From a virus (taxonomy: Duplodnaviria > Caudoviricetes), in IMG/VR virus record IMGVR_UViG_3300013121_000033, positions 1 to 64,000 of that record: 64,000 nucleotides of DNA. The stretch is one strand, 5' to 3'. The notes beneath the pieces were generated by a model. The model saw nothing but the letters and a program-made list of their open reading frames with translations. It was not told the DNA's origin and did no database searches. Below are positions 46,040 through 64,000 of this stretch, piece by piece. The number at the start of each line of letters is the position of its first letter. The first letter of the stretch is position 1. The position numbers and the translations under genes are program-made.

Positions 46040-46323
46040 GATGCGCCTCGCAGCTTGGTGACTCGGTGGACGGTCTTGACGCGGTCGGGGTGGAACGACC
46101 GGAAGTGGACTGGTTCCCCGGCGCGGGCCTTGCCGAGGCAGGTGATCCACTCTGCGCCCGGCGGGGTGCGGACGTGCTCGACGAACCGGTAGCGGCCCGG
46201 GACCCCACGGATCGAGAGTTCGGTGCCAGAGACGACACGGCGGCCGTTCACGGTGATCTCGGCGGACCGTTCCCAGTCGGCGTCGACCAGGCCGACAGCG
46301 GTGGTCGTGCGGCGGCGGGTCAC
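46036..46323 (-). CDS. Small SH3-like actinophage protein
   Basis: IRG..GRYRF..HV...EWI...FRSF.PDRV. Confidence 0.65.
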   Translation of the reverse strand: MTRRRTTTAVGLVDADWERSAEITVNGRRVVSGTELSIRGVPGRYRFVEHVRTPPGAEWITCLGKARAGEPVHFRSFHPDRVKTVHRVTKLRGAS

Positions 46324-46649: not shown

Positions 46650-46705
46650 GCCCACACCCTACCAGAGTGTTGACGTGACCACAACACCCGGTGTATGGTG
46701 GGGCC
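46650..46705. promoter_or_regulatory. Overlapping divergent leaderless promoters
   Basis: +: TTGACG-18-TATGGT-6-ATG; -: TTGTGG-17-TAGGGT-6-ATG. Confidence 0.75.
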
Positions 46706-47089
46706 ATGGACAACGACACCGAAACCACCGCCCCAACCGTTCCCGTCACCGTGACGGTCCTCCACACCAGCGACCTGTCCGCCTACATCCTCGCCGGACG
46801 CGGCGACCGGATCGACTACAGCGACGTCACCGACCGCGACGGCAACCCCGTCACCTGGACCGAGGTGTTCACCTTCCCCGCCAACATCGACCCCGGCGCC
46901 GACGGCGTCCTCACCCTCTGCGAAACGGCCTTCCAGGTGTTCAACATCGGCGAGACGGGCATCGCCGCCGACTACCGGGCGAAGGACCTGCGGTCCCTCT
47001 CGTGCGGCGACCGACTCCGGATCGCCTACCCCGACAGCGTCGACACCTACGAGGTCGCCAGCTTCGGGTTCGAACGGGTCACCGACTGA
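46706..47089 (+). CDS. Leaderless protein (MDND...) with YodL-like RSLS.GD motif
   Basis: F.VFN...RSLSCGD...Y.VASFGF. Confidence 0.6.
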   Translation: MDNDTETTAPTVPVTVTVLHTSDLSAYILAGRGDRIDYSDVTDRDGNPVTWTEVFTFPANIDPGADGVLTLCETAFQVFNIGETGIAADYRAKDLRSLSCGDRLRIAYPDSVDTYEVASFGFERVTD

Positions 47090-47090
47090 C

Positions 47091-48068: not shown

Positions 48069-48155
48069 GACCAGCGACCATACGCGACAGAGAGGGGCCG
48101 GGCCGTGAAGCCCGACCCCCCTCCGGTCAGGGGGTACTCGGTGAAGCCGCTGGGA

Positions 48156-50120
48156 TCAGGAGAAGTCGCAGTCGGCGGGCTCGACACCGTTGGCGCGGGC
48201 ACCGTTGGCGCACGCCGAGATGTCGATGGTCGCCGACGGCGAGCAGCCGGTCTTGGCGAGCGACAGCCACTCCTTCGAGAACCAGAGCTTCTTGTTCTGG
48301 CGGACCAGGTTGCCGTCGACCATCCAGCCCGTCGCCTGCTCGCCGGTCGCCGAGTACAGGTAGTCGGCGGGGGCGATGAGGCGGACCCGGTTCGTCGTCG
48401 GCAGCGCCGGGATCGAGTCGGCCGAGCCGCCCACCGTGGTGAGAGCGTCGAACGCACCCGACTTGAAGTCCCGGAGGAACTTCACCCGGACACCGGTCTG
48501 GTCCTCGATGTAGGCGACGAGTTCCGCCGCCCGACCGCGGGTCGTCTGGGCGAACACTCGACGGTTCTCGTCGTTGATGAGCCGCTTGATGTGACCCGGC
48601 TCCAACCAGAGGTCGTAGTCGCCCTCGTCCAGCCGCTCGCGGTACGTCAACTGCGGGAGCAGTTCGTTGACCGCGTCGATGAGGGCGACCAGGGCGCCGA
48701 CATCGGTGTAGGTCGCCGTGTACGGGTGGGCGGTGGCGTCGAACTTGGTCAGGAGGTACTGCTCACGCACCCGGGCACGCACGACGGCGAGCTTGTGCAT
48801 GAACTCCTCGACCCGCTCGGGCTGGCTGATCTCGGTCGAGTCATCGACTCGGGCCGAGGCGACCAGTTCCTCCGCCTTCACCGGGACGGCGTCGGCGCAG
48901 GTGATGTCGACCGTCGGCTTCCAGGTCGACGAGTCGTCGTCGTCGATGCCTTCCTGGTCGTCCTCGCCCCAGATCGCGACGCCGTCCTCGACCTCGTCGG
49001 ATGCGATCGCCGGGAAGTGCTGGAACCCGAGGCGACCGATCGGCCGCGACGGCAGCGAGTCCGCGAACGGCGAATCGACGATGCCGCACATCGGGATGTC
49101 CCGGAGGATGTCCAGCGGCTCGCAGATCGCGGCGGTCACGCCGGGGAGCGGCGCCAGACCGGCACGCTTCCGCTTGAACGCTGCGACCGTCTCGGCGATG
49201 AGGAGCGTCGCACGGTCCGGGCCGGTGTTGCGGTCCAGCACCTCGACCGGCATGTCGGCCGTGTCCTCGAACGGCTTGAGGGAGGCGATCACGCCGGAGA
49301 CGGCGCCGCCGCCGGGGCCGGGGCGGACGGACCGCACGGCCTCGATCATCTCGCCGATCTGGCCGTAGTTGACCTCCTCGCCCTGACGGACGACCGACTG
49401 GCCGCCCATGGCGACGAAGCTGGTGCGGGGCCGCTCGAACGCCGCGGCATCGGCGACCGGTCGACCGTCGGCGACGACGGCGGCGGTGACACCGGCCCCG
49501 GCCAACTCGCGGTCACCGGCTGCGTCGGCGGTGAATGCCTCGGCCTGGGCGACGGTGTCGGCCAGGGCGTCGGCGCTGGGCTCGTTGCTCTCGGGGGTCT
49601 GTGCCACCGTCGTCTCCTGCTCTGCGAGGGCACCCGCCGTGGGTGCCGTGGTGGAAGCATCCACCGTGGACGTGTCACCGCCCTGCACCGGGGCCTCGGC
49701 GGGTGCCTCGGCGACCGGAGTGGACGGGGCTTCTGCGACCTCGGCCGGGGCCTCGGTCACCTCGGTGGCCGCCTCCACCTCGGTGGGCGGCTCGGCCTCG
49801 GTCGCCTCCGCGGCGGCGTCGACCTCCGGCTCCACCTCGGCCTCGGCGACCGGCTCGACGAGGGCGACGTCCTCGACGATCTCGACGCTGCGCAGCTTGT
49901 TGATCGCTTCGGCGATCTCGTTGCGCTGCGCCTTGAGCGACTTCATCTGGTCGCTCCACTGCAACGTCCGCTTCTCGCCGTCGAGAGCAGCGATCGTCTC
50001 GGTCAGGCGGCCGTGCTCCGAGAGCAGGTCGTCGACGTCCATGGCGGTGAGGTCGAGAGCCTGGCCCTCGACCTCGGCGGCCTCCGTCGCGGCCTCGGCG
50101 TTCTCCGGGGTCTGGTCCAT
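48156..50120 (-). CDS. Major capsid hexamer-type protein with N-terminal scaffold-like region
   Basis: Coiled coil plus long acidic Ala/Glu linker, then AAICEP..Y/D..LPS..R.G.., K...I.C capsid core; ATG at 50120. Confidence 0.75.
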   Translation of the reverse strand: MDQTPENAEAATEAAEVEGQALDLTAMDVDDLLSEHGRLTETIAALDGEKRTLQWSDQMKSLKAQRNEIAEAINKLRSVEIVEDVALVEPVAEAEVEPEVDAAAEATEAEPPTEVEAATEVTEAPAEVAEAPSTPVAEAPAEAPVQGGDTSTVDASTTAPTAGALAEQETTVAQTPESNEPSADALADTVAQAEAFTADAAGDRELAGAGVTAAVVADGRPVADAAAFERPRTSFVAMGGQSVVRQGEEVNYGQIGEMIEAVRSVRPGPGGGAVSGVIASLKPFEDTADMPVEVLDRNTGPDRATLLIAETVAAFKRKRAGLAPLPGVTAAICEPLDILRDIPMCGIVDSPFADSLPSRPIGRLGFQHFPAIASDEVEDGVAIWGEDDQEGIDDDDSSTWKPTVDITCADAVPVKAEELVASARVDDSTEISQPERVEEFMHKLAVVRARVREQYLLTKFDATAHPYTATYTDVGALVALIDAVNELLPQLTYRERLDEGDYDLWLEPGHIKRLINDENRRVFAQTTRGRAAELVAYIEDQTGVRVKFLRDFKSGAFDALTTVGGSADSIPALPTTNRVRLIAPADYLYSATGEQATGWMVDGNLVRQNKKLWFSKEWLSLAKTGCSPSATIDISACANGARANGVEPADCDFS

Positions 50121-50229
50121 GGGATCGGGTCCTCCGTCGTGGTCCTCGCCGCCCCCGGGGTGGGGGTTGCGACTGTTGACGTCAACCGGAGGATCGACCG
50201 CCGGTATCAGACGGTCGACATCATCGGAC

Positions 50230-50247
50230 CTGGACGTGTCACGACCG
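50230..50247 (-). promoter_or_regulatory. Late promoter motif upstream of the hexamer gene
   Basis: CGGTCGTGACACGTCCAG. Confidence 0.7.
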
Positions 50248-50442
50248 TGTAAACGGCGGGACCACGAGCGTGTCGCCATCGCGCACAACGTGACGCACCT
50301 GGCTTGAGTTCCGTGCGAGGAAGCGGTCCAAGTCCTCGTCGGAAGCGAACCGGCGGATGGCGCCGGTGAGGTTCATGATGCCGGGGCCGACGATGCGTTC
50401 GCTGCCGTCGCCGCGCTGACCGCCGCAGGATGCGCAGGCCAT
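50239..50442 (-). CDS. Small Cys-rich protein (MACASCGG...)
   Basis: MxCxxCG proteins commonly precede actinophage capsid genes. Confidence 0.6.
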   Translation of the reverse strand: MACASCGGQRGDGSERIVGPGIMNLTGAIRRFASDEDLDRFLARNSSQVRHVVRDGDTLVVPPFTRS

Positions 50443-50684
50443 CAGTCGGACGTCAACGTGACAGCGTCGGGGTCCTCGGGCGGCTCGGCGATCGACGCGC
50501 CGCCGCCCGGGTCCTCGTCCTCGATCTCGACAACGGGGACGTCGTTGACGCGCATCTCGGCCAGGGTCGACTCGATGCCGTCGACACGACGCTGGATCGC
50601 GTCGACACGTTCAGCGAGGTCGGCGGGCAGGTCCCCTTGCGCCTGGGCTCGTTCGACGGTGGCAGCAGCGTTCTCGACGTCCAT
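50442..50684 (-). CDS. Small coiled-coil head-module protein
   Basis: Coupled ORF. Confidence 0.6.
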   Translation of the reverse strand: MDVENAAATVERAQAQGDLPADLAERVDAIQRRVDGIESTLAEMRVNDVPVVEIEDEDPGGGASIAEPPEDPDAVTLTSD

Positions 50685-50711
50685 GAGCGTCGAGGATAGA
50701 TGCCGGGAGTG

Positions 50712-51335
50712 TCAGCCCCGTGGGTTCGCTGCGATCTGCTTCGCCTGCCAGCGTGACGCTTCGTCAGCGGCGCGTTCCCACATCGGGTAGATCGGGTCGC
50801 TCTGATCCGGGCTCGGGCCGAACATCTTCGCTGCGAACGCCGACGGGGCGAGGGTCGAATCGGCGTTCGCCTGGAACGACGCGACGACCGCGGCCTGTGC
50901 GTCGGTGTCACCGTTGACGGCAGCCCCGACAACGGACTCGGTGAGCCCGGAGGGGAACACGACATCGGGGGGTGCGGTCAGCGACGCGATGACACCGACC
51001 TTGCGTTCGATCCGGTCCAGGTGCGCTTCGAGCACGTTGAGCGCCGCGGTGACTGCTTCGGTCGAGACGTACGGTTCCGGTTCGAGGTTCACGTCGACTT
51101 CGCCGTCGGCGTACACGGACGACAGGAGCTTGAACGGGACCGCTTGTGCCGGGTCCTGCGTCTCCAACCACACCTGTGTGTCGTCCTCGGGTGGGTCGGC
51201 GGAGTACGAGAGCAGCTTGCCGTCGGGGGTGACGGCTGCGACGTAGACGTCCTGAACGGCTTGAGCGTCGGCGGCTGTCGTAGCGACGTCCGTCAGGTCG
51301 TTGGGGTCCCCGGGGGCGGTGTCCTGCGGTTCCAC
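50712..51335 (-). CDS. Head-module protein sharing its N-terminal domain with the 1481-aa protein
   Basis: VYV...TPDG.LLS...VW...AVP...VD..LEPEPY..VTAA; leaderless GTG. Confidence 0.7.
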   Translation of the reverse strand: MEPQDTAPGDPNDLTDVATTAADAQAVQDVYVAAVTPDGKLLSYSADPPEDDTQVWLETQDPAQAVPFKLLSSVYADGEVDVNLEPEPYVSTEAVTAALNVLEAHLDRIERKVGVIASLTAPPDVVFPSGLTESVVGAAVNGDTDAQAAVVASFQANADSTLAPSAFAAKMFGPSPDQSDPIYPMWERAADEASRWQAKQIAANPRG

Positions 51336-51361
51336 AGCGGCAAGTATGTCGCGTGGGTGGG

Positions 51362-51643
51362 TCAGGAGGTCGCTTGGACGAGCGCTCGCCTGTCTCGGGC
51401 TTCGCGGATGCGCTTGAGGTCGTCCTCGGGGTGAGTGCCGGTCGGGTGCGTCCACGGGTTGAACCCGCCGTGGTCACCGTCACCGATCGCGAAGTACGCG
51501 GCGTTCGGGTCGACGGGCGGTTCGAATGTGGGGACGTTGACCTTGCCGGTGTCGTAGGCGTCGACCACGTCGTCCGCGGTGACGTTGCCTTGGATGTAGG
51601 CGTAGTAGAGCCGGTCCTCGCTGTTGTCGTCGTCCACGTCCAC
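51362..51643 (-). CDS. Small acidic protein
   Basis: AAGGGA RBS; directly downstream of the Zeta-domain protein. Confidence 0.55.
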   Translation of the reverse strand: MDVDDDNSEDRLYYAYIQGNVTADDVVDAYDTGKVNVPTFEPPVDPNAAYFAIGDGDHGGFNPWTHPTGTHPEDDLKRIREARDRRALVQATS

Positions 51644-51685
51644 TCCCTTCACACCCACCAATGTAGGGATCACGTCAACAAGGCG

Positions 51686-54600
51686 TCAACCTGCGGGGGC
51701 GGCGGGACCGGCGACGGGTTCACCTGCCGGGACCACTTCCCATTCGGATGTCGTCCCGGAGAGGAACCCTGAGGGGATACCGCCACCGACGCCGATCTGA
51801 GCCCACGTCCCGTCGGGCTGCTTCACGAGGGGGACGCCGCGGCCGTCGACCCGTCGGATCGTTGTTCCTGCCTGCTCGGCGTCGAATCCGGAAGTGTCGC
51901 CGCGCTTGATCCGCTTCCGCTTCGGCGGAGTCGGCGTGGATGGCTTGTCGGACTGTGGGACTTCGGTGGTGAGCGGGCGGATGCCAGCCGGGCGGCTGCC
52001 GTCGCCTTCGACGTCGACACGCCAGTCGGCGTCGAAGGCGATGTCCTCGTCGGTGAACTCGGTGCCGGACGAATCGACCCATGTGCCGGTCGAGGTGCGG
52101 CGGAGTTGGTCGCCGACGCCGTCTGTTCGAGAGATGCGCGAGTCGGTGGGGAGCGCAGCGAGCGCGTCCGGGGTGTGCTTCGGGATCACAGTCGCGAGGC
52201 GTGCCCGGTTGTCGACCACGACTCCGTCGGTGAACAGCCCGTCGGCGAGCATCGCGTCGAAGTTGTCATCGACACTCGACGCAGCCCCGGGGAGTTGCGG
52301 TGCCGCGGTATCCCACGTTTGCGGCGGCACGAGGCGCCCACCGTCGGGGGTGGCGGCACCGCGTGCGTAGCGGTCGAGAGCGGATCGGCGTGAACCATCG
52401 AGCGTGATCCGGGCGTTGATCCCGACCCGTTCGTCGTAGCCGCGGTCGACGAGTTGTTGGACCTTCTTCTGGACGCCGCCGCGGGACACGAGGGTGCCGT
52501 CCAACGCGACGTTGTAGCCCTCGTCGATGAGCCGCTGCCACAGGGCCTTCGACAGGTACGACGACTCTTCGTGGGTGAGGCCGACCGTCTCCATCGGCTT
52601 GAGCCCTTCGACGTGCGGGTAGGCGCCGTGGTGGATCAGCGCTTCCTTCATGAGGTCGGGGTTGACGACGACGTGGGTGACACCGTCGGGGATGTCACCG
52701 GTGCCGGGCTCGAACATGACGAACCCGCGTTCGGCGGCCGGTCCACCCGGTTGCAGGGCGGTGGATTTCCCGGCGCCGGGGAGGCCCGCCATGATGACCG
52801 CACGACGTTCCTTCGGGACCTTCCCTTCGACCTGGCTGATGATGTCGTCGATGATCTGCTGGTGGAGGGCCTGGCGTTCCGGTGTCCATTCGTCGCCGTT
52901 GGGGCCGAGACGGTTCTCCAAGACGTGCGTGTCGAGCGGGCTGTCGGTGAGCGCGAGGTCGGAGAGGATCGCGGTGAGGGCCGCAGCGCGGTCGTAGGGC
53001 CGGTCGAACCCGGGGACGGACGCGACTGCTTCCTCGACCTGCGTGCGGAACCCTTGCGCCTCGGGGGTGAACCGCAACCCGACGTCGGCGTCGGGAAGGT
53101 TGACACCCTTGTCGATGGCTGCCTTGATCTTCTCGATGTCGCCGGGGTCGGCCTCGGGACCGGAGAACACTGAGGCGCCGGGGATGCCGACTTCGGCGGT
53201 GTACGCGTTCGCGAGAGCGAGGAGTTCGGTGATCGGCATGTCGATCCGTTGGATGTCCATGTCGGCTGCGCCGTCACCGTTCGCGAGGGCGTACGCAGCT
53301 TGGGCGGCCCACCGGTGGTGGCCGTCGACGACGTAGTCGTCGGACGACACGAAGATCGTGCCGCGCACAGCGTTCGGGTCGACTCCGATGTCCCGGTAGA
53401 TCGCTGCAACCTTGGCGCCGTCGAGTTCCGCTTGGGACGCCTTGAGCATCGACGGGTTGATCCGTTCGTCGGTGACCGTGACACCGGTCGAGCGGACGTA
53501 GTCGACGAACTGGTCGCCGACGTTCACCCACCCTTGGTCGTCGCGAGGGAGTGAGGCCGCCATGGTCCCGGGGAGCGGGTCCGGCGACGAGAACTGCGGC
53601 ATGTGGATGCGTTCGATCCCTTTGTTGTCCGCACAGAACAGGTTCGTGCCGGGTACGGACACGAGGCACAGGTCGTACTTGGGTGCGTCCGCTCCGGCGG
53701 CGACCGCTTCCTTCACCATCTCGTCGAGCTTGTCGACGAGAGTGGATACCTGGCGTTCGTGCGCGAGTTGGACATGCTGCTTCTGTGCGATGAGCGCGGC
53801 CGCTGTCTGGACGTCGGTGGTCTGGAACGGGTTCGCCTTGGTTCCGTCGCCAGCGGTCACCTGGTCGGCGAGGTCCGGGGTCAGATCAACCTTGGACAGG
53901 TCCGCCGTCGACCCCGAGGCTGCCGGGCTGGCGGCTTCGGGGTAGGAGACGACCTTGCCGGTGATGCCGTTGACGTTGATGGCGCTCGCTACGTTGCCGT
54001 GCTCGTCGCTGATCGTGCCGTCGTCGTTCAACGTGATCGTGTCGGCGAGGCCGTCAACCTTGAACTTCGTTCCGGCCGGGTACTTCGACGTGTCGATCTG
54101 ATGCTCGGTGTCGACCTCGGGGCGGTCCATGGCAGGAGAACTGACGGTGGGGAACCGTGACTTTGGGGGTTCACCCGCCGATGCTGCACGGTCAGCTTCG
54201 CGTTGTTGGCGGGCCGCTTCTTCCGCTGCGCGGCGGGCGGAGCGTTCTGCGCGGCGGGCGTCTCGGTCGGCAGCGACCTTCTCCCAGTCGGTGTTCCCGG
54301 TGTCCGGTTCCTGCGGCGCCCCATCGGGGAAGTACCCCCACTCCATGAGGTCATCGCCCGCGTACCGGACACTGTCGGCGGGAACCTGTTCGGACACGAC
54401 AACACCGGGGCCACCCGCGATGTTGGACGCGGCGTGCTGCTCTGCGTAGCTCCGGGAGAGCGTCACCCAATCGCCCTGGCCGAACGCCTTGCCCTGGTCG
54501 GCGACATCGGAAGGGACAGCCCGGTAGATCGTGACGGTCGCATCGGGGTTGCCGTCGACTGACCGGAGCGCGGCCATTGTCTCATCGACACCACCCGGGT

Positions 54601-56131
54601 TGGACGTGCCGTATCGCTCAGGGTGGTCCGCCCAATTGGCGGGCATCATCTCCGTGTCGTTGATGAGTTCCGCGGCGGACGGCCCGTACGTGGGGGTATG
54701 GCCGACTCCATGGCTGAACGCGTCGGGCGAGTCGGTGGAGTCGATGTTGAGGACGCTGCCGTCGGGGACCCGCCACTCGTGAGCGATCGGGTCTTTGAGG
54801 TCGACACCCATCGTTCCCGGCTTCGGTGACACCGTGACGATCCCAACGTTGTTGGGGTCGAGGTTTGCGAGGTCGTCGGCCTTCACGCCGGTGATGAACA
54901 TGTCGCGGGGACCGCCGCTGAATCCGCGTTGCATCGCGAACGTCTGGTAGAGGCCGAGCCGCTTCTGCGGATCATCGAACCGGCTGAGGTCGGAACCTTC
55001 GACAGCGACGAGGTTGTCGTAGAACGGGGCGGACCCTCCGTCGCCGGTCTTGGCGCGTTCGAACAGGTCGGCGGCGGTGATGTCTCCGCGGGCGACGGCG
55101 CGGGCTTCGAGAATCTGGTCGCGGATCAGGTCGGCGGTGGCACGGTCCGTGGTGAGACTGATCGCGTGGTCGGTGCCGCCACCGAGCCCCGACCCCGACC
55201 CGACACCGAGGTCGGCACGCGACTTGAGTGCCCCGTCGGCCTTCACCGCGGACAGGTTCGTGGTGACGTGGTACAGGGTGTCGGGGAGCGGGTCGAACCG
55301 GTCGGCCTGACCGTTCGAGATGTCATGAGCGACCGACTCCGCCTGCCACGGGGCGAGGCCGTAGTCGGACGTCAACTGCTCCTGACGGATGTCGCCCCGA
55401 GAGATCGCCTTCGCCGCTTCGACATTCCACGCCGGGGTGATGTCGGCGACACCGTCCACCTTCGGGGGAACCGGCAACGCAGCGTTGACCTGGGGGACGT
55501 CGGGGGCAACTTTGTCGGGAGTGTCGACTTCGGGGAGTTCGGGAAGGTCGTCCAACCACGACGAGAACTCGCGGTTCGCGAGGTCCCATGCGTTCTGGTC
55601 GTCACCCGGTTCCGACGGTCGTTCGCCGAGCACCTTCGCCGCCCACATGCCACGGTTCTCCCGAGAGTGGGGGCCTCGACCCCACCCGTCGGCCGCTTCC
55701 TTCAACTTCTTGTCGAACGACGCGAGGAGTTCGGTGCGGGCTGCGCCGTCCCCTTTGAGCAGCTTCCGGAGTAGGCCCTTGGACACGAACCCCTTGGGAG
55801 CGAACCTGCCGCTGTTCGGATCGTGCCAGTAGCCGAGTTCGTCGAGGCCGCCACCGATCCCGTCGCCCACCTCGTCCGCCGCCGACTTCACTTTCCGCTT
55901 CCCCGCGGCGGCGGTCACGCCCGGCTGGTACGGCTCCGGTTCGAGGTAGAGGTCAACTTTGTTGGCCCCGTAGTGGGCGATGACCTGTGCAAGTGGGACG
56001 GCTTCGCTATCCGGTTCGCCGTCCTCCCACACCATCGTGGTGTCGTCAGGGGTGCCGGATGCCCAAGATAGAAGCCTGCCGTCAGGGGTGTCGGCGACGA
56101 CGTAGACGGGCGCGGTGGCGGTGTCGGTCAC
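51686..56131 (-). CDS. Polyvalent protein (1481 aa): two ART-like domains, ParB/Srx, Zeta-toxin-like kinase
   Basis: LYHVT..ISLTTD..E; IYRAVP..GDWVTLS..YA..H..EWGY; VVDGHHRWAA; GLPGAGKS..NPD..K..HEES..ALDGT. Confidence 0.8.
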   Translation of the reverse strand: MTDTATAPVYVVADTPDGRLLSWASGTPDDTTMVWEDGEPDSEAVPLAQVIAHYGANKVDLYLEPEPYQPGVTAAAGKRKVKSAADEVGDGIGGGLDELGYWHDPNSGRFAPKGFVSKGLLRKLLKGDGAARTELLASFDKKLKEAADGWGRGPHSRENRGMWAAKVLGERPSEPGDDQNAWDLANREFSSWLDDLPELPEVDTPDKVAPDVPQVNAALPVPPKVDGVADITPAWNVEAAKAISRGDIRQEQLTSDYGLAPWQAESVAHDISNGQADRFDPLPDTLYHVTTNLSAVKADGALKSRADLGVGSGSGLGGGTDHAISLTTDRATADLIRDQILEARAVARGDITAADLFERAKTGDGGSAPFYDNLVAVEGSDLSRFDDPQKRLGLYQTFAMQRGFSGGPRDMFITGVKADDLANLDPNNVGIVTVSPKPGTMGVDLKDPIAHEWRVPDGSVLNIDSTDSPDAFSHGVGHTPTYGPSAAELINDTEMMPANWADHPERYGTSNPGGVDETMAALRSVDGNPDATVTIYRAVPSDVADQGKAFGQGDWVTLSRSYAEQHAASNIAGGPGVVVSEQVPADSVRYAGDDLMEWGYFPDGAPQEPDTGNTDWEKVAADRDARRAERSARRAAEEAARQQREADRAASAGEPPKSRFPTVSSPAMDRPEVDTEHQIDTSKYPAGTKFKVDGLADTITLNDDGTISDEHGNVASAINVNGITGKVVSYPEAASPAASGSTADLSKVDLTPDLADQVTAGDGTKANPFQTTDVQTAAALIAQKQHVQLAHERQVSTLVDKLDEMVKEAVAAGADAPKYDLCLVSVPGTNLFCADNKGIERIHMPQFSSPDPLPGTMAASLPRDDQGWVNVGDQFVDYVRSTGVTVTDERINPSMLKASQAELDGAKVAAIYRDIGVDPNAVRGTIFVSSDDYVVDGHHRWAAQAAYALANGDGAADMDIQRIDMPITELLALANAYTAEVGIPGASVFSGPEADPGDIEKIKAAIDKGVNLPDADVGLRFTPEAQGFRTQVEEAVASVPGFDRPYDRAAALTAILSDLALTDSPLDTHVLENRLGPNGDEWTPERQALHQQIIDDIISQVEGKVPKERRAVIMAGLPGAGKSTALQPGGPAAERGFVMFEPGTGDIPDGVTHVVVNPDLMKEALIHHGAYPHVEGLKPMETVGLTHEESSYLSKALWQRLIDEGYNVALDGTLVSRGGVQKKVQQLVDRGYDERVGINARITLDGSRRSALDRYARGAATPDGGRLVPPQTWDTAAPQLPGAASSVDDNFDAMLADGLFTDGVVVDNRARLATVIPKHTPDALAALPTDSRISRTDGVGDQLRRTSTGTWVDSSGTEFTDEDIAFDADWRVDVEGDGSRPAGIRPLTTEVPQSDKPSTPTPPKRKRIKRGDTSGFDAEQAGTTIRRVDGRGVPLVKQPDGTWAQIGVGGGIPSGFLSGTTSEWEVVPAGEPVAGPAAPAG

Positions 56132-56156
56132 CCGGCAAGTATGCGGGGTGGACTGG

Positions 56157-56429
56157 TCAGCCGCGAGGTTCGGGGTCAGGAAGGTCGACGTCGGTGTCGG
56201 TCACGGTGAGGCCGACGTCACGAGCCGCGGCGGCGAACGCCGAGAACGCTGCGACGTCAGCTTCGGGAAGGTCCCAGTTGCCGGTGAGCCCGACGAACTC
56301 GTCGACCTGCAACCCGACCAGTTCCCCGGACTCCATCGCCGCCTCAACCTCGGACGCGACCACGTCGAACGGGGTGACCCCGTCGCGGGTCGCCGTGTAG
56401 GTGACCCCGTTGCTCAACGTGACCTTCAT
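56157..56429 (-). CDS. Small acidic protein
   Basis: ATGA-coupled to the giant upstream gene. Confidence 0.6.
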   Translation of the reverse strand: MKVTLSNGVTYTATRDGVTPFDVVASEVEAAMESGELVGLQVDEFVGLTGNWDLPEADVAAFSAFAAAARDVGLTVTDTDVDLPDPEPRG

Positions 56430-59400
56430 GGCGCCACCGTACCCGCCGCGGCGCCTGCCGTCGATGCTGCCACGTCAGGAGTGGGCAGTGGGGCTACCGG
56501 GGTTGGGGTGCCGGGCAGGGGGGCGCCTTGGATGGGGGTGGTGTTGCCGTCGACACCTGCGGGGGTTGTCGGGGTGATCGTCGCCATGAGGCCCGCCGCG
56601 AAGGCTGCGAGCTTCGGGTCAGCGAGCCACGTTCGGGACTCACGATGACGGCGGTTCGACTTCGAGAACTGCTGCACCGCGGTCGTGAACACCTCGAAGT
56701 TTCCGCCGTCGCCGACGGACGGCTTGTAGAGGCGCCCCGAGTATTCGTCGGCGAACTCGTCTTTCCAGCCTTGCGGGTGGCGCCCGGACACCTGGCGGGT
56801 CCACCTGAACTTCTTGCGGTCCGGGTCGGCGGCGACACGGCGGATCAGGTGCCACGCTTCGGCGGCGGTGAGTCCTGCGAGGGTGTCCTCGAAGCTGTGA
56901 CCGAACTCGTGTGAGACGACGTCGACATACTTGGGCTGCTTCGTGACCGACGGGACGGACAGTTTGTGGGTGCGGCCCTCGTTCCAGTGGGTGCCGCCAC
57001 CGAGGCCGCGGGCGCCTTGGATCGCGAGGCGTTGCGGGACGCGACGGAAGATCGCCGACCACGACGTCGGGAAGATGCGGAGCCCTGCTTCGGCGGTGCG
57101 GCGCACGTCGTTGTTCCCGAGGCGGGCGAACGGCTTGTCCTCGGGGTACTTGCCGGAAGCGGCGAACACGGCGTGCGCGTCGACGCCCATCGGGATACCG
57201 AGCGCTTCCATCGTGTCGACCCACGCCCGGGTGATGTCGGGCACCTCGGAAGCCCCTTCGAGTTCCGCTGCGCGGCGGCGGCGGGCGATCGTCTTGAGGA
57301 TGTCGGCGCCGTTACCGTCCAGGATCACGGTTGTCGATTCGGTGCGCCGGTACACCTCACCGGTTCGTTCGCTGACCCCGGTCGTCGGATACGACCATGT
57401 CATCTTGACCTGGCCGCCCTTCGAGACGTGGATCGCTACCTTCGATGCAATCCCGCCGGTCGGGATGCGAGCACTTAGGCCATTCGGCTGCCCTGTGTCG
57501 GGGTCGAAGTACGCGTAGACCTCGTAACCGTCGTACGTTTTCCAGGTCGAGAAATCGTTGATGTCGGTGTTGCGGAGCCACCCCAGCCGTTCCGTCACGG
57601 CTGCAACGTCAGCGGGGTCTGTTTCGGGGGTTGGGTTGCCGACGCCGTTGAGGACGGTGTTGACGATCGCTGCTCGGATCGGGGTGGGGCTTTCATCGCC
57701 TTCGCCGTAGTCGGGGAACAGGGCGGTGAACCTGGCGTCCACCACAGCGGTGAGTGCCGCCCCGAATTCCTCGACCCGGTCGAGGTTCCGTACCGACGTC
57801 CGTTCATCCGGGGTGAGGTTGTCTGACTCGATGCGGTCCAACAGTTCACCGTCGCCTGGTTCCTGGCTTTCGGGTCGCGAGAACCACGACGCGTGATCGG
57901 CGGGGAGGCCGTCGAGGACTGTTTGGCGGGCGGCGGCGAGCGCCGCGACGCGTTCCTCCCACGGTCGGGTTTCGTCGAGCGCGACGGTGTAGTCGGGGTC
58001 GGGGATGACCCCGAGTTCGTCGGCGGTCGAGATGGACGTCCACAGGTCGGTTCCGCCGTCGCCGTTCGGTTCGGCGTAGACGATGTCGCGGGCGGGGAGG
58101 CTGACATCGCCGTCGGGGTCGGCGACGAAGTGGCCGCCCACCCACCGGGCGGCGACGGTGTCGTCGTTCGAGCCGCTGCGCAGATCACGGATCGTGTCCC
58201 GCGACCTGGTCATGAGCGCTTGGACAAGATTGTCCTCGCGTCCGCTGATCGTGGCGCCCCGCCCGGAACGGAGCGACAGGACAACCCGGTCGGCGTCGGC
58301 GGCTCCGGCTGCGGCGTCAGCGACCGCCAGGAGGCGTGAGACGCGGGGGTCGGTGACGGGGAGGACGATGTGGTCCTCGTCGGACACCGGGAGCGTCGAG
58401 TTCATGAACCCGTACGGGAACGGCGACCAGCCGACCGTGTGGTCGCGGACGTTGACGGACACGGTGAGCGGCTGCGCTCCGGGCGGCCAGGTTGTGACCC
58501 GCCACATGCCGGTCGGTTCCACGACGGGCTCCGAGGCCGACGACCCGTAGGCAGCCCGCCTGTGCCACACCCCGTCTAGGTCGACGACCGCTTCGTTGCC
58601 GTTGGCTGACCGGAGGGCGGTGCCTTCGGGGAGGAACTTGCGGGCCTCGGGGTCGGACGCGTCGAACATGACGGACGGCTTGCGGGTGATGGTCCGGAGG
58701 GCCGCCTTGATGCCAGAGCCGCGTTCGGCTTCGGTGACGAGGTCGAGGCCGTTTGCGATGTCGGGGATGAGGGCGTCGATGCGGGCGTCGATGTCGTCGG
58801 GCAACGGGACCCGAGCGGTCGTGTCGGCGTCGAGTGGAGGGTTGGCCCACAGGAACGTGGGGACGCCGTCGGTGTCGTTGAGGGTGCCGTGCACGTTGCC
58901 CCAATTGAGCGTGACGGGCTTGACTCCGTTGATCGGGGTGGTCGTGTAGATGGCGCGGCCGCCGACGGAACCGATCTCGTAGGCAGGCCACTGCACGTCA
59001 ACGTTGCCGACCGTGACACCGCCGCCTTGGGTGGCGTTCGCCGTCGTCGCGTTCGACCGGAGGAACGCAGCGACCGCTCGCTGCGGGTCGTCCGGCTGCG
59101 TGATGTCAGCCATCGCGTAACTCGTCGGACCGTCGAGGCGGCGCTTCACCGCCGCTGCGTCGACATCACGCCAGTAGCGAGCGACATCTGCCGGGTCGAG
59201 ATCACCGACCGCCGAGAACAACGCCTGCCGTGCGGCAGAAACATCTGTGAACGACGCCGCCGCAGACGGGGTCGGACCCTGCGGTTCCGGGTCTGGGGCT
59301 GCGCCGTCGGGTGCGGTGTCTGCGAACCGGGACCACTTCACCTTGAGCGCGGGTTGGTCGTCGCGGGGGATGCGCGCGTACGTGTCGTCCACGTACTCGA

Positions 59401-62400
59401 CGGGCACCGTCGAGCCTTGCGGGTAGCCGTGACGGTTCAGATAGTTGTCGGCGACGACAGCTTCGCCGGTGCCGCCCGCGTCGCGGATGCGGTCCCTGGT
59501 AGCTGCTCCCGCTCCCGTGGTTGTCCTGGTCGTGTTTGGAGTACGTGACGGCGCAGACACGACGCGGGTGCCGGGGCCGGGCTCGGCGTCGGAGAATCGA
59601 CCCCACTTCACCTTGAACCGTTCGCCGTTGTCGAGCGTCACCGTCGCGTAGGTGTCGTCCTGGTACTCGACAGCGACAGCGTCACCCTTCTGCACCCCGA
59701 GCCGGGACAAGTAGTTGTCGCGTGCGATCGCCAGAGTCGGGCCGTCAGAGGCACGAACCCGGTCCTTCACCGATGTCGGCAGGTCCACGGTCGGCGCGTC
59801 GAGCACATCTCCGGTCAGGGACTTTGCCCCGGCCCATGACGCCGACCCCAACAGGACTTCACGGCCGACGGGATCGCGTGCCACCTCGTACGGGGTCGGG
59901 TATCCGTCGGGTGCCTTCATGCGCACCATCTCGGCGATCGACTTGCCGTCGCCTACCGCCACGAGTTGACGGCCGAGTTCATTGTCCGGGTCGCGTTCGA
60001 GTAGCAGGTTTCCGATCTGGTGGCCGCTCGCGACGGACGCCCAGTCGAACCCGGCGTCCGCCCATGCCAGCGCTCCGGTCATCCTGGTGTGGCCGGGACG
60101 GGCCGGTTCGGACACCGCCGTCACACTGAGGCGTTGCACACCTTGAGCGGCGAGGCCGTCCTCGATGTGGGCGGCGAGGCGGGTCCCGACCCCTTTGCCG
60201 GTGTGGGCACCTTCGAGTTCCATGGACGCCAGGTGAGCGACCGGGGAGCCGTCCTCATCGAGTGAGAGACGGTAGGTGTAGATGCCGACCTTGTCGCCGT
60301 TGTGGGTGATCTCGCCGGTGACGTCGATGCTGTGATCCCGGGCCAGGCGCACCGACGGCGTCGCCGTGTATCCGTCGCCCAAGTCCGCGGTGAACACCGG
60401 GGCCAGCCGGTCCTTGACCGACGCATCCCACGTCGACCGGTCCGCCCCCGCTGCCGCAAGGACGTCGCCGAGGGGGCGTGCGGTGTCGGCGGTTTGGGCG
60501 TCGAGTGCTGCCCGTTCGATGAGGCCGCGGAGGACGCCGACGGAAACGGGCGAGTCGCTGGTGATCTCGGTGCCGTCCGCGGTGGACGCCCAACGCGCCC
60601 CAGCACGACCGCCGTACGAACCGAGCGTCTTGCCAGACGCGGTGAGGACCGTGAACTTTCCGGCACCGTCACGCCGAACGCGGGTCGCTTCGCCGGTCGC
60701 GGCTTCCCACGGGGTCGCGAGAGGCTGCATCCCTGTGTCGGTTCGCGGTGCAGGGGATTCGGCAGTGTCGGGGCGGATGTGGAGGACCGCCCAGAAGTGG
60801 ACGCTCTGTTCGTCTCCGGCTTCGGCGGTGAGAACTTCGCGGTGGGCGACGGCGACCTCATAGGGGGTCAGGTCGGTGTCGGTCAACGGTTCCCCCGCGA
60901 CGAGTTTGCGGGTCACCTCCGCCATTCGGTCGGCCATCACGTCGTCGCCGACGGAGCGGAGGTTCGACTCGATGTGGTTCAGGTCTTGTTTGCCCCCCGG
61001 TGCGAACCAGTCCGGGTTGAGGCCCCAGTCGAACCCGGCCTTCGCCCAGGTGTAAGCGCCGTTGAGGTCGCCGCCTCCCGCTGAGGACGTCGCGTTCATG
61101 ACGACTCGGTCGACCCCGGCGGACCGGTAGGCGTCGAGGGACGCGGCGAGGAACCGGGTGCCGATCCCGTTGCCCTGCTGGTCCTTGTCGAGGACGAACT
61201 GGTCGTGCACGACGACGGCTTCGCCGTAGTCGAAGTGCCGAGAGCGGACGTAACGAGTGAACGTACCGACCGTCTGACCTTCGACTTCGATGCGGCCACG
61301 AACGGTGGTGTTCCCTCCGATCGCGCCTGGCTCGATGTCGTCCACGACGGATCGTGTGTCGTCACCGAGGTCGTGCTCGAACAGGCTTCGGATGAACGCC
61401 GGGTCCTCCGACACGGTTAGTGCGTCGTCAGCCGGACCGTCCAACTTCGGGACGTCAGCCAACCGGCGGCCAGCCAGCGTTGGCGGTTCTGTAACCGCAG
61501 GAAGTTCCGCTCGGGCGGTCATCGCAGCGGCGTGCCGTTCAGGGAACGTGTTGAACGGAGCGGTTGGGACCCCGTCGATCGGCTCGGGCCACGCTTCGAT
61601 CGCGTCGATGATCTTCGGATCGCGGACGACGATCACTTCGTCCTTGTCTGCGCCGCCCTTTCCGAGTACCTGGTCGATGGGGAAGTCGCGGGTGGTATCG
61701 TTGCGCCCCCACTTCTTCGGTGACCCCGGGTTGTCACGATTCCGGTTCTTCTCTGCTGGCAGCGTTGACCACGACGTCAGCCCCGACGTAGCTGTGTCGC
61801 CTTTGCGCCCCGGGCTCCCATACCGGCCGGGGTCGTTCCCACCGAAGGGGTCTTTCGAGTCGGAGCCCCGGCTCAACGTCACCGTTTCGGGGGCGCGCTC
61901 CGCCCACAAGCGGTGCATCGTCTTGAGCCCCTGTACCTGCTCCGGCTGCGGGTCCTCGGACTTCATGACATCGGAGAGCAAGCGACGGGTCCAGGCGAAC
62001 AAACTGAACCGTTCGGCTTCGGCACCGGGCTCACCCCACGAGGCGTTCGGGTCGAACCCGGGAAGCAGTTTCGTGATGTCCTCGAAAGCGGCCAATTCCT
62101 CTGGGGTCAGGTCGTCCCGTGTCGGGGCCTTCATCGCCGCCTCAAGTGACCGGGCGGCGGCGGGGGTGTCGGCGGCAGGGGCGGTGAGGCGGTCGATGTT
62201 GCGGGCGTGCCAGTTCGCGAGTTCGCGTTGGGCGGCGTCCCACACGTTGCGGTCGTCGCCAGAACGGTCCGGGCGGGGGCCGAGGACCAGTTCGGACCAG
62301 CGGCCGCCGTTCTCCCGCCACAAGCCACGCCCGAAGTCGGGGTCGTCATGGGCGCGTTTGTCGAGCAACCCCAAGAACTCGGTGCGGGCCTTCCCGTCGC

Positions 62401-62713
62401 CCTTGAACAGAGCGCGGAGGATGCGGGCCGAGATGTAGCCCTTCGGTGCGAACTTCCCGGTGGACGGGTCATGCCAGAACCCGAGTTCGTCGAACCCGCC
62501 GACGCCTTCGCCGACGTCGCGGCGAACCCGACGCGCAGCAGCGGTCACGCCCGGGTCGCGGCGGCCGGGGCGAGCGGCGGCGATCTCCGTGTAGCTGTAG
62601 CCGTCGGCGAGGAGCGCGGCGCGCTGCTCTGCCCACAGTTCAAGGTCGACCGGGACGGTGTCGACGGGCGGCCCAAGGTTCGGTTCGGTGAGCGGGACAG
62701 CAGGCGTGGTCAC
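56426..62713 (-). CDS. Polyvalent protein (2095 aa): R-S-E ART-like, two GNAT, tandem SH3-like repeat, zincin peptidase
   Basis: LSRG..LTSWST..EVIV; QGNGIGT..GAYTWAKAGFDW; GKGVGT..GALAWADAGFDW; HEFGH..EVFT. Confidence 0.8.
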   Translation of the reverse strand: MTTPAVPLTEPNLGPPVDTVPVDLELWAEQRAALLADGYSYTEIAAARPGRRDPGVTAAARRVRRDVGEGVGGFDELGFWHDPSTGKFAPKGYISARILRALFKGDGKARTEFLGLLDKRAHDDPDFGRGLWRENGGRWSELVLGPRPDRSGDDRNVWDAAQRELANWHARNIDRLTAPAADTPAAARSLEAAMKAPTRDDLTPEELAAFEDITKLLPGFDPNASWGEPGAEAERFSLFAWTRRLLSDVMKSEDPQPEQVQGLKTMHRLWAERAPETVTLSRGSDSKDPFGGNDPGRYGSPGRKGDTATSGLTSWSTLPAEKNRNRDNPGSPKKWGRNDTTRDFPIDQVLGKGGADKDEVIVVRDPKIIDAIEAWPEPIDGVPTAPFNTFPERHAAAMTARAELPAVTEPPTLAGRRLADVPKLDGPADDALTVSEDPAFIRSLFEHDLGDDTRSVVDDIEPGAIGGNTTVRGRIEVEGQTVGTFTRYVRSRHFDYGEAVVVHDQFVLDKDQQGNGIGTRFLAASLDAYRSAGVDRVVMNATSSAGGGDLNGAYTWAKAGFDWGLNPDWFAPGGKQDLNHIESNLRSVGDDVMADRMAEVTRKLVAGEPLTDTDLTPYEVAVAHREVLTAEAGDEQSVHFWAVLHIRPDTAESPAPRTDTGMQPLATPWEAATGEATRVRRDGAGKFTVLTASGKTLGSYGGRAGARWASTADGTEITSDSPVSVGVLRGLIERAALDAQTADTARPLGDVLAAAGADRSTWDASVKDRLAPVFTADLGDGYTATPSVRLARDHSIDVTGEITHNGDKVGIYTYRLSLDEDGSPVAHLASMELEGAHTGKGVGTRLAAHIEDGLAAQGVQRLSVTAVSEPARPGHTRMTGALAWADAGFDWASVASGHQIGNLLLERDPDNELGRQLVAVGDGKSIAEMVRMKAPDGYPTPYEVARDPVGREVLLGSASWAGAKSLTGDVLDAPTVDLPTSVKDRVRASDGPTLAIARDNYLSRLGVQKGDAVAVEYQDDTYATVTLDNGERFKVKWGRFSDAEPGPGTRVVSAPSRTPNTTRTTTGAGAATRDRIRDAGGTGEAVVADNYLNRHGYPQGSTVPVEYVDDTYARIPRDDQPALKVKWSRFADTAPDGAAPDPEPQGPTPSAAASFTDVSAARQALFSAVGDLDPADVARYWRDVDAAAVKRRLDGPTSYAMADITQPDDPQRAVAAFLRSNATTANATQGGGVTVGNVDVQWPAYEIGSVGGRAIYTTTPINGVKPVTLNWGNVHGTLNDTDGVPTFLWANPPLDADTTARVPLPDDIDARIDALIPDIANGLDLVTEAERGSGIKAALRTITRKPSVMFDASDPEARKFLPEGTALRSANGNEAVVDLDGVWHRRAAYGSSASEPVVEPTGMWRVTTWPPGAQPLTVSVNVRDHTVGWSPFPYGFMNSTLPVSDEDHIVLPVTDPRVSRLLAVADAAAGAADADRVVLSLRSGRGATISGREDNLVQALMTRSRDTIRDLRSGSNDDTVAARWVGGHFVADPDGDVSLPARDIVYAEPNGDGGTDLWTSISTADELGVIPDPDYTVALDETRPWEERVAALAAARQTVLDGLPADHASWFSRPESQEPGDGELLDRIESDNLTPDERTSVRNLDRVEEFGAALTAVVDARFTALFPDYGEGDESPTPIRAAIVNTVLNGVGNPTPETDPADVAAVTERLGWLRNTDINDFSTWKTYDGYEVYAYFDPDTGQPNGLSARIPTGGIASKVAIHVSKGGQVKMTWSYPTTGVSERTGEVYRRTESTTVILDGNGADILKTIARRRRAAELEGASEVPDITRAWVDTMEALGIPMGVDAHAVFAASGKYPEDKPFARLGNNDVRRTAEAGLRIFPTSWSAIFRRVPQRLAIQGARGLGGGTHWNEGRTHKLSVPSVTKQPKYVDVVSHEFGHSFEDTLAGLTAAEAWHLIRRVAADPDRKKFRWTRQVSGRHPQGWKDEFADEYSGRLYKPSVGDGGNFEVFTTAVQQFSKSNRRHRESRTWLADPKLAAFAAGLMATITPTTPAGVDGNTTPIQGAPLPGTPTPVAPLPTPDVAASTAGAAAGTVAP

Positions 62714-64000
62714 GGTGCAACTCCGGGGGCTGCGGCGGGTGCGCCGGTGCCGATGATGTTGGTGTTCATCCAGTCGATGAGGGCTTGGGCTTCGGGACCG
62801 AAGTCGGACGTATCGCCGCCCAGGGCGGCGGCTGCGAACGCCTCAGCGAACCCTTCCTGCGCGTTCTCGTTCGAGTAGAACGAGATGAACCGGCGCTTCA
62901 TCCGCGACAGACGATCTCCCGAGCCGCCCCAGGCGTTCTCCCATTCCGATGTGTACGCGGCGTGGTAGCGGTCCCACAGCCGTTTCCATTCGTCGGCGAG
63001 CGGGGTGCCGACCCACCCCACGTCGGAGATCGAGTCGTGGACGTAGTGGCCGGTTTCATGGGTGAGGACAGCGCGGCGGTCCGGGGTTTCGCTGCCTCGT
63101 AACCATCCGACGGTGGTGACGTCGCCGATATCGAACCGGTCCCCGCGGACGTTCACGGCGATCGGGTCGCCGCCGATCTCGCGACGCGAGTTCAACCACA
63201 CCGTCCCCGAGCCCTGCTGATAGTTGGCGGTCGCCGGTTCGTGCTCGGGATCGCGCCGGTAGCTGACGATGAGTCGCGGCTGGTCGATCCCGAGTCGAGC
63301 GAAAGCTTGTTGGACTCGATCGTTCGCCATCGCTTCACGCCAGTCGGACTCGACATCTGCGATGACAGCCGGGTCGAGTTCGCTGTCGATGATCGGTGGG
63401 CTTTCACGCCACCGCCGTTCGCGGCTCTTCCCTTCGAACCGTTGCCGCCACTTCTCGAACTCGCGGGCGATCACATCGGGGTCGCGACGGTAGAACGCGA
63501 GCGCCAACTGTTCGGTATCGGTCAGCTTGTAGCCGCGGGCTTCGCGCCACAGTGCGGTACCGATCAGGCCGTCGCGGCCCGACAGAGCGTTGCGTTCCTC
63601 GGGGGTCATCGCTTCGATCTCGGCGAGGCGTTCCGGCGGGTGGCTGTCGAGGAGCGATTGGACACGGACGAGCGCGACGGACTGTGCATCCGACGCGGGG
63701 CGGCCGCGGTCGGCCCACAGGTCGGTGCCGTCGGCGACGAGCTTCGCGACGTCGGCTTTCTTGAGGCGCTTTGCGGCAGGCGTCGTGCGGGGCGGGACGG
63801 GTGGCGGGTCGGGACGGAGGTTGAGGACACCGTCCCACGCGCCGACCCCGGACTTCATGATGTCGGGATGGATGGTCGCGACTTCGTAGGGGGTGATGTC
63901 GGACGCGTCGAGTGGTTCCCCGGCGTCGAACTTTGCTCGCACCTGTTCGACCCGGTCCGCCATGGCGTCGTCGCCCGCGGCGCGGAGGTGACGTCCGATT
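62710..64000 (-). CDS. Polyvalent protein, C-terminal part (end of a GNAT module plus zincin peptidase); 5' end outside the window
   Basis: MADR..AGEPL..D.TPYEVA matches the post-GNAT segment of the 2095-aa protein; HETGH..EGFAEAF. Confidence 0.8.
   Translation of the reverse strand, partial: IGRHLRAAGDDAMADRVEQVRAKFDAGEPLDASDITPYEVATIHPDIMKSGVGAWDGVLNLRPDPPPVPPRTTPAAKRLKKADVAKLVADGTDLWADRGRPASDAQSVALVRVQSLLDSHPPERLAEIEAMTPEERNALSGRDGLIGTALWREARGYKLTDTEQLALAFYRRDPDVIAREFEKWRQRFEGKSRERRWRESPPIIDSELDPAVIADVESDWREAMANDRVQQAFARLGIDQPRLIVSYRRDPEHEPATANYQQGSGTVWLNSRREIGGDPIAVNVRGDRFDIGDVTTVGWLRGSETPDRRAVLTHETGHYVHDSISDVGWVGTPLADEWKRLWDRYHAAYTSEWENAWGGSGDRLSRMKRRFISFYSNENAQEGFAEAFAAAALGGDTSDFGPEAQALIDWMNTNIIGTGAPAAAPGVAP

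Follow-up and report, generated by a model that had tools for sequence, protein, structure and literature searches.

We analysed a 64,000-bp window (bases 1-64000 of the single 225,159-bp contig of IMG/VR record IMGVR_UViG_3300013121_000033, 68% GC) from an uncultured, high-GC Caudoviricetes phage with a large genome, and found that the giant proteins encoded next to its capsid gene share one module at the front, directly after a VTAA tetrapeptide. The module consists of two separable units: unit A, a motif of about 20 residues, is universal, and unit B, a basic four-helix domain, occurs in some of the proteins. Judging from the sequence searches, the module appears restricted to one lineage of uncultured high-GC phages. 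The reading that we favour, tentatively and at a little less than an even chance, is that the module is the constant, non-enzymatic front of a head-cargo cassette, in which unit A would be an N-terminal cargo signal retained on the protein, the VTAA site would free it, and unit B would serve as an optional adaptor. Whole-contig coordinates are marked G000 below.

A module shared by four giant proteins

Two giant genes are complete in the window, both on the minus strand. Giant 4 (P0001, 1481 aa; 51686..56131) consists of a leader, VTAA, the module and ParB-like, ParB/Srx-like and Zeta-toxin-like domains, while giant 3 (P0002, 2095 aa; 56426..62713) has a leader of type III, VTAA, the module, two GNAT domains, SH3-like NYL..KVKWxRF repeats and a C-terminal HEFGH zincin motif. 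The preliminary description of this DNA had claimed a common stretch behind VTAA in both proteins, followed by entirely different enzymatic domains, and both claims hold. BLASTP of P0001 against P0002 gave a single significant segment (residues 70-192 versus 54-168; 67 of 123 identities, 54%; E 9e-33), and the coordinates of the module in the two proteins were verified by translation. All the remaining segments had E>1, so the two proteins are unrelated outside the module. Their downstream domain sets in Pfam and PHROGs also differ: P0001 carries Zeta_toxin (Pfam, E 1.3e-15) and two ParB-like PHROG families, and P0002 two GNAT domains (Pfam/PHROGs), its C-terminal HEFGH being read from the translation.

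In the whole 225-kb genome, tblastn detected exactly four copies of the module, all of them in the giant genes between the protease-like gene p327 and the capsid gene. A six-frame search for the pattern WHDP..G.FA over the genome likewise had matches confined to these four genes. Giant 2 (1222 aa, with GNATs and an HETGH motif) has its C-terminal part in the window (62710..64000, minus strand; entire gene G000 62710-66378), and it had been suggested to check whether this truncated protein begins with the module. It does: VTAA and a full copy lie just outside the window (G000 65815-66141, minus strand; E 1e-27). Giant 1 (1823 aa) contains only the first ~52 residues of the module (G000 71781-71924, E 5e-12).

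Two separable units of the module

The module had been described as one unit of ~110 aa. The shared stretch is real, while its unity is not: in giant 1 and the proteins of loci L003-L010, unit A precedes a different, SH3-like domain, also found in giant 3, which makes A and B separable units, and only the WHDPxxGxFAxxG unit is universal. In P0001 (all on the minus strand), VTAA occupies residues 72-75 (55907..55918) and is a predicted prohead-protease site; it is followed by a linker, AGKRKVKSAADEVGDGIGGG (55847..55906), which is basic and then Gly-rich and is modelled as disordered, by unit A, LDELGYWHDPNSGRFAPKGFV (55784..55846), which contains the universal motif, and by unit B (55547..55783), a basic four-helix domain. 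The corresponding parts of P0002, on the same strand, are VTAA at residues 56-59 (62537..62548), unit A, FDELGFWHDPSTGKFAPKGYI (62432..62494), and unit B (62210..62431). The motif of unit A can be written as [FLY]-D-x-x-G-x-W-H-D-P-x-x-G-x-F-A-x-x-G, in which G39, A42 and G45 are invariant and F41 is nearly so.

A structure prediction of the module had been proposed, and an AlphaFold2 model was made from a 29-row alignment. Residues 48-126 of the module (unit B) form a confident four-helix domain with pLDDT about 90, while the WHDPxxGRFAPKGF stretch of unit A reaches low-to-moderate confidence with short strand bridges, and residues 1-25 (VTAA and the basic/Gly linker) are disordered. The module is basic, with a mean net charge of +4.6 and a pI of about 10, and most of this charge is carried by unit B; the 30 aa before the site are acidic (mean -3.9).

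It had been noted that the module might turn out to be a known catalytic domain. No match to it was found in Pfam (E<=0.01), PHROGs or NCBIfam, the best hit of a profile search against the Protein Data Bank (PDB) had E 0.7, Foldseek against PDB and BFVD returned nothing with E<0.001, and a search of the ESM Atlas gave no usable match. The best Z of an exhaustive VIA structure search was 4.9, which is the background level for helical domains. Since no Pfam family, PDB sequence or known fold matches, the module does not appear to be a known catalytic domain, and no DNA-binding fold or family was recognised in these sequence and fold searches either. Predicted as a complex, the capsid protein (57-710) and the module scored 0.00 (mark 0.32), which speaks neither for nor against their binding.

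Distribution of the module and its payloads

A profile (HMM) search of 1.84 billion representative proteins, with a census of the downstream domains, found 35 proteins at E<=1e-3 and 15 at E<=1e-10. At least one of them, the repeat protein P0017, is a false positive of this search, and P0033 and P0036 are doubtful. The 35 proteins are 412-3601 aa long, and the module was never seen as a short stand-alone protein. It lies at residues 20-150, or after an N-terminal part of ~300 aa or ~600 aa. The domains behind it vary across the relatives (Zeta, GNAT, ART, 2H, zincin). In the Pfam scan, which covered 28 of the proteins, Zeta_toxin (7) and AAA_33 (5) were the most common payloads, followed by DUF3626, DUF7218 and 2H phosphoesterase (2 each); pentapeptide repeats, ADPrib_exo_Tox and ATLF were also found.

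A repeated small domain, (A/V)DNYLxRxGxxxGxxVxVxYxDDxYAxV...KVKWxRF, which is probably SH3-like, occupies 59300-59770 of the window (P0002 residues ~983-1130). The same domain is seen in giant 1 at residues 147-310 (G000 ~71300-71770), sits after unit A in giant-1-type proteins, and recurs in many relatives (P0005, P0007, P0015, P0018).

The gene context of the relatives is drawn from nine loci: one in IMG/VR, one among 185,579 species genomes (a metagenome-assembled genome of Micrococcales), and seven in metagenomes. In L002, three unit-A proteins are followed by a capsid protein (45% identical) and a glycosyltransferase; L009 has the order portal, p327 homologue, unit-A protein; and in L003, L006 and L007 a p327 homologue precedes the unit-A giants. 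The layout proposed earlier, namely leader, VTAA, common module and variable enzymes, recurs in about 30 divergent representatives, and the genes lie in the head module, between portal/protease and the major capsid protein, but the leader is not universal. For instance, leaderless ORFs of 1343 aa and 2107 aa in L003/L005-L008 open with M-x7-8-WHDPGNGQFA, two ORFs of L002 begin 8 and 17 residues ahead of the W and have no TAA-type site, and L004 has an 8-residue leader ending in VVAA. Some relatives therefore have a native unit A at 8-19 aa from the start, with neither leader nor site.

In three relatives (3 of ~7), the ORF upstream of a unit-A giant ends at one stop in frame with the giant (L002:1390-1510, L003:~5940-5980, L004:1230-1250), as in ...CRNCRG*FVPYDSLGIWHDP. 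These single stops could be due to chance, a recent gene split or read-through.

The census also bears on the possibility that the module is a part of the payload, such as a binding or regulatory domain directed at the host (acting on a host nucleic acid or protein, for example, or capping the adjacent enzymes) which stands first by chance. Weak helical hairpins similar to unit B occur inside P0005, P0007 and P0010, ahead of GNAT or Zeta and without a site or unit A, and the module immediately precedes a Zeta domain in P0011, P0013 and P0019, as one would expect of such a domain. We nevertheless find this explanation improbable: the module is the sole element common to cargo with unrelated enzymes, it always comes first, and it is confined to one lineage with one type of capsid protein and protease.

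VTAA as a candidate processing site

VTAA had been regarded as a site of the maturation protease. It is indeed enriched in the head proteins and, in the capsid-protein family, conserved where the propeptide ends, a pattern from which we infer the cleavage. Of 31 non-redundant homologues of the module, 23 have TA[AGS] no more than 45 aa upstream of GxFA, compared with 6.6% of background windows (binomial P 4e-21), although this statistic covers the T-A-[AGS] form only, its representatives are not fully independent, and so loose a pattern is easily met in Ala-rich proteins. The homologues without it mostly have a VAA-, LAA- or AAT-type variant. A basic run follows the site, and the spacing varies from 7 to 35 residues.

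The proteins of the head module (11.8k aa) contain 13 VTAA, where about 1 is expected from composition and about 3 at the rate of the rest of the genome. The motif is present in all four giants, the capsid protein, the portal, p327 and p247. The 710-aa major capsid protein (48156..50288, minus strand; phrog_777) has an N-terminal propeptide with a coiled coil and an acidic part: the coiled coil is followed by a long acidic Ala/Glu/Pro/Thr linker which ends at VTAA-267 (49479-49490, minus strand), the propeptide boundary. This column reads A-[VM]-[TV]-A-[SGA] in nearly all the closer homologues among 43 and is missing in the seven most distant; the region before it varies in length (129-276 aa) and is strongly negative in charge. 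The second VTAA of the capsid protein (TAAICxPLDI, residues 384-387; 49128-49139, minus strand) belongs to x-T-A-A-I-C-x-P-L-D-I-(I/L)-R-(D/E)-(I/V)-P, which is invariant (44 of 44 sequences). If this were the final maturation cut, the mature protein would have ~325 aa, and the propeptide, at ~385 aa, would be unusually long.

In the portal (1079 aa; G000 74069-77308, minus strand; phrog_776), the homology to phrog_776 and to the L009 protein begins at residues 313/314 and VTAA is found at 319, while [FY]A[VI]T-A[ASG] is conserved directly after the core in p327 and its homologues. Because the motif is conserved in the capsid homologues and also stands at the start of the portal homology and behind the core of the probable protease, cleavage is well supported, if indirectly, by sequence comparison, and VTAA is a well-supported candidate for the prohead-protease site. 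Besides, a 558-aa protein (40854-42530) with a 2H phosphoesterase at its N-terminus and DUF7218 at its C-terminus has MTAA/VTAA at residues 346, 423 and 461, between small modules, and looks like a polyprotein cut via the same code.

It might be argued that TA[AGS] reflects the composition or structure of Ala-rich proteins, that neither processing nor packaging takes place, and that the giants act late in the infected cell. VTAA is about 3-fold above the composition expectation even outside the head module, and the giants' predicted link to the virion comes from their gene context. On the other hand, the motif stands in aligned columns of 43 capsid homologues and marks domain boundaries in the portal and in the protease-like protein, its 13 copies compare with about 3 at the genome's own rate, and several contigs keep the giants between the protease and capsid genes. 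We consider this the least probable of all the explanations discussed here.

Two other readings of the motifs were rejected: for a signal peptidase site (AxA), the sequences have no hydrophobic signal segment, and for a type VII (WxG) signal, they have no conserved WxG turn.

A candidate prohead protease upstream of the giants

The gene of p327 (G000 72119-73102, minus strand) sits between the portal and capsid genes. The protein has no match in Pfam or NCBIfam. H99, H122 and S183-G-D-W-R are invariant, and the best of 48,161 chains in the VIA search with its model (pLDDT 56) was the T4 prohead protease gp21 (Z 3.9, 112 aa, rmsd 4.4); the proteases of VZV and HCMV were weak rows in the same search. 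The leads from the Atlas were Peptidase_S77/S78 and Mu-like_Pro, at 0.86-0.87. From the invariant residues, the gene position and these weak fold matches, p327 is probably the prohead protease, of a putatively assemblin-like kind.

Herpesvirus assemblins cleave at (V/L)-x-A|S (Welch et al. 1991). By analogy with this preference, the cut would be placed at V-T-A|A.

A p327-like domain (35-47% identity) is also found N-terminal to the site and the module in P0013, P0018, P0019, P0025, P0031 and P0035. This qualifies the earlier statement that the system is independent of MuF fusion. As stated, there is no Pfam match to Phage_Mu_F (PF04233) in any giant or the portal at E<=0.01; however, six relatives fuse the cassette behind a prohead-protease-like domain, so it is not independent of head-assembly proteins.

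These fusions, which put the protease domain directly upstream, are what one would expect if unit A were a docking element (exosite) for the prohead protease on the P' side, ensuring one precise cut at TA|A in floppy, low-copy cargo and having no later role. The strict co-occurrence of site and unit A at a short but variable spacing agrees with such a role, and so does the fact that the giants have essentially one N-proximal site each and are otherwise at the shuffle expectation. But leaderless proteins retain unit A with no site to cut, while the capsid protein, the portal, p247 and the 2H protein have sites and no unit A, so that we regard the docking function as quite improbable, slightly more so than a role in the payload.

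Retained signal or removed leader

The giants of this genome have three unrelated types of leader. Type I is common to giant 4 and p247: residues 1-71 of P0001 (55919..56131, minus strand) are 45% identical (64 aa) to residues 66-129 of p247. Type II is common to giant 1 and p80 (34% over 62 aa), its match to the protease tail being much weaker (E 0.05), and type III is common to giants 2 and 3. Both p247 and p80 are encoded on the minus strand. p80 (50442..50684) is a small acidic coiled-coil protein, while p247 (50712..51455) is a stand-alone, cargo-less paralogue with leader I, VTAA (51042-51053) and a non-basic, WHDP-less unit B. It is colinear with the entire front end of giant 4 (BLASTP E 5e-18; unit B by hhalign 66%, E 5.5e-5), and in P0006 a p247-like segment lies in the middle of the protein, followed by a second VTAA and a full module.

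The idea that p247 is a scaffold and unit B a scaffold-derived, coat-binding hairpin was dropped. The homology is real, but p247 is too rare: among 5.8e9 proteins a single further stand-alone homologue was found, whereas the capsid protein has 43 clusters, so it is not the general scaffold of the lineage.

In these very large multi-enzyme proteins, the distance from the N-terminus, native or predicted mature, to unit A is always within about 8-35 residues. Since unit A is native without a leader in some relatives and fused behind a protease in others, we read it as a retained signal and not as a passenger of the leader. And because several relatives are leaderless, the leader cannot be the general targeting element, which makes the retained motif the better candidate. 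In our proposal, unit A, a short strand-forming motif, would be recognised by a common head component (the portal, the propeptide or inner surface of the capsid protein, or the protease), and by this recognition polyvalent effectors that are otherwise unrelated would be built into the prohead. When a longer part lies upstream, such as a scaffold-like leader or a prohead-protease domain, a (V/I/K)-T-A-(A/S/G) site and a basic run separate it from unit A, and p327 would, most likely, by analogy with known proteases, cut V-T-A|A during head maturation, so that the cargo is freed with unit A near its new N-terminus. Unit B would probably pair with the acidic propeptides in the prohead first and with DNA once these peptides have left, and the pairing with DNA would keep the cargo with the genome for co-ejection.

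The preliminary description had distributed these roles differently. In its model, the variable leader is a prohead-targeting propeptide similar to that of T4, and the module has no part in loading and becomes, after cleavage, a basic DNA-binding or ejection handle which leads the cargo out with the genome. The resemblance of the leaders to p247 and p80 speaks for this model, the protease tail adding little. So do the basic, disordered linker, the basic pI of the module, and the example of the T4 internal proteins, which are basic and ejected (PMC9026906). It also accounts for the position of unit A, which could equally reflect a role after cleavage, and for this reason the model remains strong. 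It has difficulty with the leaderless relatives, which also need loading and have unit A alone in common, with the searches, which detected no DNA-binding fold or family, and with unit B, which bears most of the charge and is missing in giant 1 and its relatives. On balance we hold it for possible and less probable than a retained signal; the payload, docking and no-processing explanations are weaker than it.

The retained-signal reading has several points to answer. Two of the three leader types resemble proteins of the head module, as a targeting leader would. While the prohead assembles, the unit A of a leader-bearing protein is still internal, and its strictly near-N-terminal place could instead mean a function after cleavage. 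The TA[AGS] pattern is loose, and the fold match of p327 is weak, both in its Z of 3.9 and in the pLDDT of the model. The internal hairpins similar to unit B hint at an effector-associated role for this unit, and the phage is uncultured, so far with its giants assigned to the head through their genes. All these points weigh against our proposal.

A further, more novel reading seems unlikely to us, though less so than the three weaker explanations. Unit A might be an export signal which the protease unmasks and which engages the channel of the portal or tail only if a free N-terminus is no more than a few tens of residues away; multi-enzyme proteins of 130-400 kDa would then be threaded into the host N-terminus first, ahead of or along with the DNA. 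If true, a siphovirus tail would have a dedicated signal for protein translocation, which could be moved to any cargo.

Genome setting of the giant genes

The head module lies on the minus strand, in the order portal, HNH endonuclease, p327, giant 1, a small gene, giant 2, giant 3, a small gene, giant 4, a small gene, p247, p80 and the major capsid protein. The gene of the HNH endonuclease (G000 73133-74044, minus strand) is inserted between those of the portal and p327. The capsid protein matches NF033847 MCP_Sipho (117 bits versus a cutoff of 75). In the phage GenBank collection, neither megablast (46000-64000) nor tblastn (module; capsid protein) found a match. The host of the lineage is probably actinobacterial.

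After three of the four giants there are small acidic ORFs of 90-103 aa (51362-51673, 56157-56429 and G000 66427-66738). Family searches with them gave no match; they might be immunity or chaperone partners of the giants. Giant 2 ends and giant 3 begins on shared bases (GTGA, 62710-62713), the stop codon of the one overlapping the GTG start of the other, which suggests translational coupling inside the array.

The phage occupies the contig from ~34 kb onward. The first ~34 kb have a GC content of 70-74% and GC3 >0.9 and contain a second, small phage-like gene set, which includes a capsid protein of HK97 type (5205-6449; Phage_capsid, E 2e-67), a tape measure (10483-13377) and, at 19068-20477, a large serine recombinase. 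Given this GC shift and the second gene set, the contig combines a temperate-type element of ~34 kb with the ~191-kb phage, which may be due to integration, a satellite or an assembly chimera. A 3225-aa ORF (G000 100033-109710) is, from its length alone, probably the tape measure of the large phage, in which case its tail would be very long.

Comparison with known systems

Phages are known to pack enzymes in the head and inject them, as with T4 Alt and the T4 internal proteins, MuF toxins, the ejection (E) proteins of phiKZ and SPN3US, and polyvalent proteins. To our knowledge, however, how unrelated giant cargo is recognised is known for T4 only. In this lineage there is a compact, sequence-defined candidate for such a signal, about 20 residues long, and a simple candidate cleavage code, V-T-A|A/S/G. 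If our proposal is right, it gives an annotation rule for head cargo in uncultured actinobacterial phages and a second, mechanistically different cargo-loading tag, retained and not removed, for the engineering of HK97-type capsids; it would also mean that, at P1, the prohead proteases of this group still prefer Ala as assemblins do.

The giants most resemble the polyvalent proteins of phages and conjugative elements (Iyer, Burroughs, Anand, de Souza, Aravind 2017, PMC5512222). In these giant polypeptides, unrelated conflict domains (Zeta kinase, ParB, GNAT, ART, 2H, zincin) are strung together; their genes lie beside those of the portal and capsid, and packaging and injection are predicted for them. 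As far as can be judged from the genes, the giants belong among them: at least two unrelated effector or catalytic domains are present in each of P0001, P0002 and giant 2, and the array is flanked by the portal (phrog_776), the protease-like p327 and the capsid gene. In a term look-up in that source, the link to phage delivery was a MuF/portal fusion or plain context, and neither a WHDPxxGxFAxxG and four-helix front end nor a TA|A processing code was found (PMC5512222). No family of Pfam, including such LPD families as it contains, matched the module at E<=0.01.

In T4, the capsid-targeting sequence (CTS) on the internal proteins IPI-III and Alt is a short N-terminal element which brings unrelated proteins into the core of the prohead; this cargo later leaves along with the DNA on ejection, and the prohead protease gp21 trims the N-terminus at a motif that is also used on capsid and core proteins (PMC9026906). 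The conserved element of T4 is the part that is removed, 7-65 aa long and cut after L/I-x-E (PMC9026906), whereas here the conserved element lies downstream of a T-A-(A/S/G) site and would be retained, the leaders are of three types or absent, and the cargo reaches 1200-3600 aa. Unit A is thus proposed to be similar in function to a CTS or a MuF fusion, but it would not be removed. With the MuF (SPP1 gp7 / Mu gpF) fusion toxins, the giants have in common a constant, head-associated N-terminal part and polymorphic C-terminal effectors; the constant part differs, being here a ~20-aa motif with or without the four-helix domain and no Pfam MuF.

The giant phages SPN3US and phiKZ-like phages load many E proteins, some of them in paralogue families, whose N-terminal propeptides of 20-254 aa are removed by the prohead protease (gp245/gp175), and their portal has a long propeptide as well (PMC10052503, PMC5694885). 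Their motif is A-X-E, their E proteins do not have the multi-enzyme make-up of polyvalent proteins together with a common retained signal, and the lineage described here, with its siphovirus-type MCP_Sipho capsid protein, is unrelated to them. The herpesvirus pUL26 (assemblin, R-site, scaffold, M-site; PMC4498786) is similar in another respect, as its N-terminal protease, of the fold class proposed for p327, is released by self-cleavage from what follows, and the proteins of P0013 type line up protease, site, module and cargo. The (V/L)-x-A|S of the assemblins also resembles V-T-A|(A/S/G). The downstream part is an effector train here and not a scaffold, and the relation of p327 to assemblin is seen by weak fold matches only.

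In conclusion, the overall concept is already known from polyvalent proteins and from propeptide-processed head cargo. What appears to be new in this lineage is a conserved signal that would be retained, a motif and a four-helix companion which have no known relatives, a candidate T-A-(A/S/G) code common to capsid protein, portal, protease and cargo, the protease-fused variants, and the apparent restriction of all this to one uncultured lineage.

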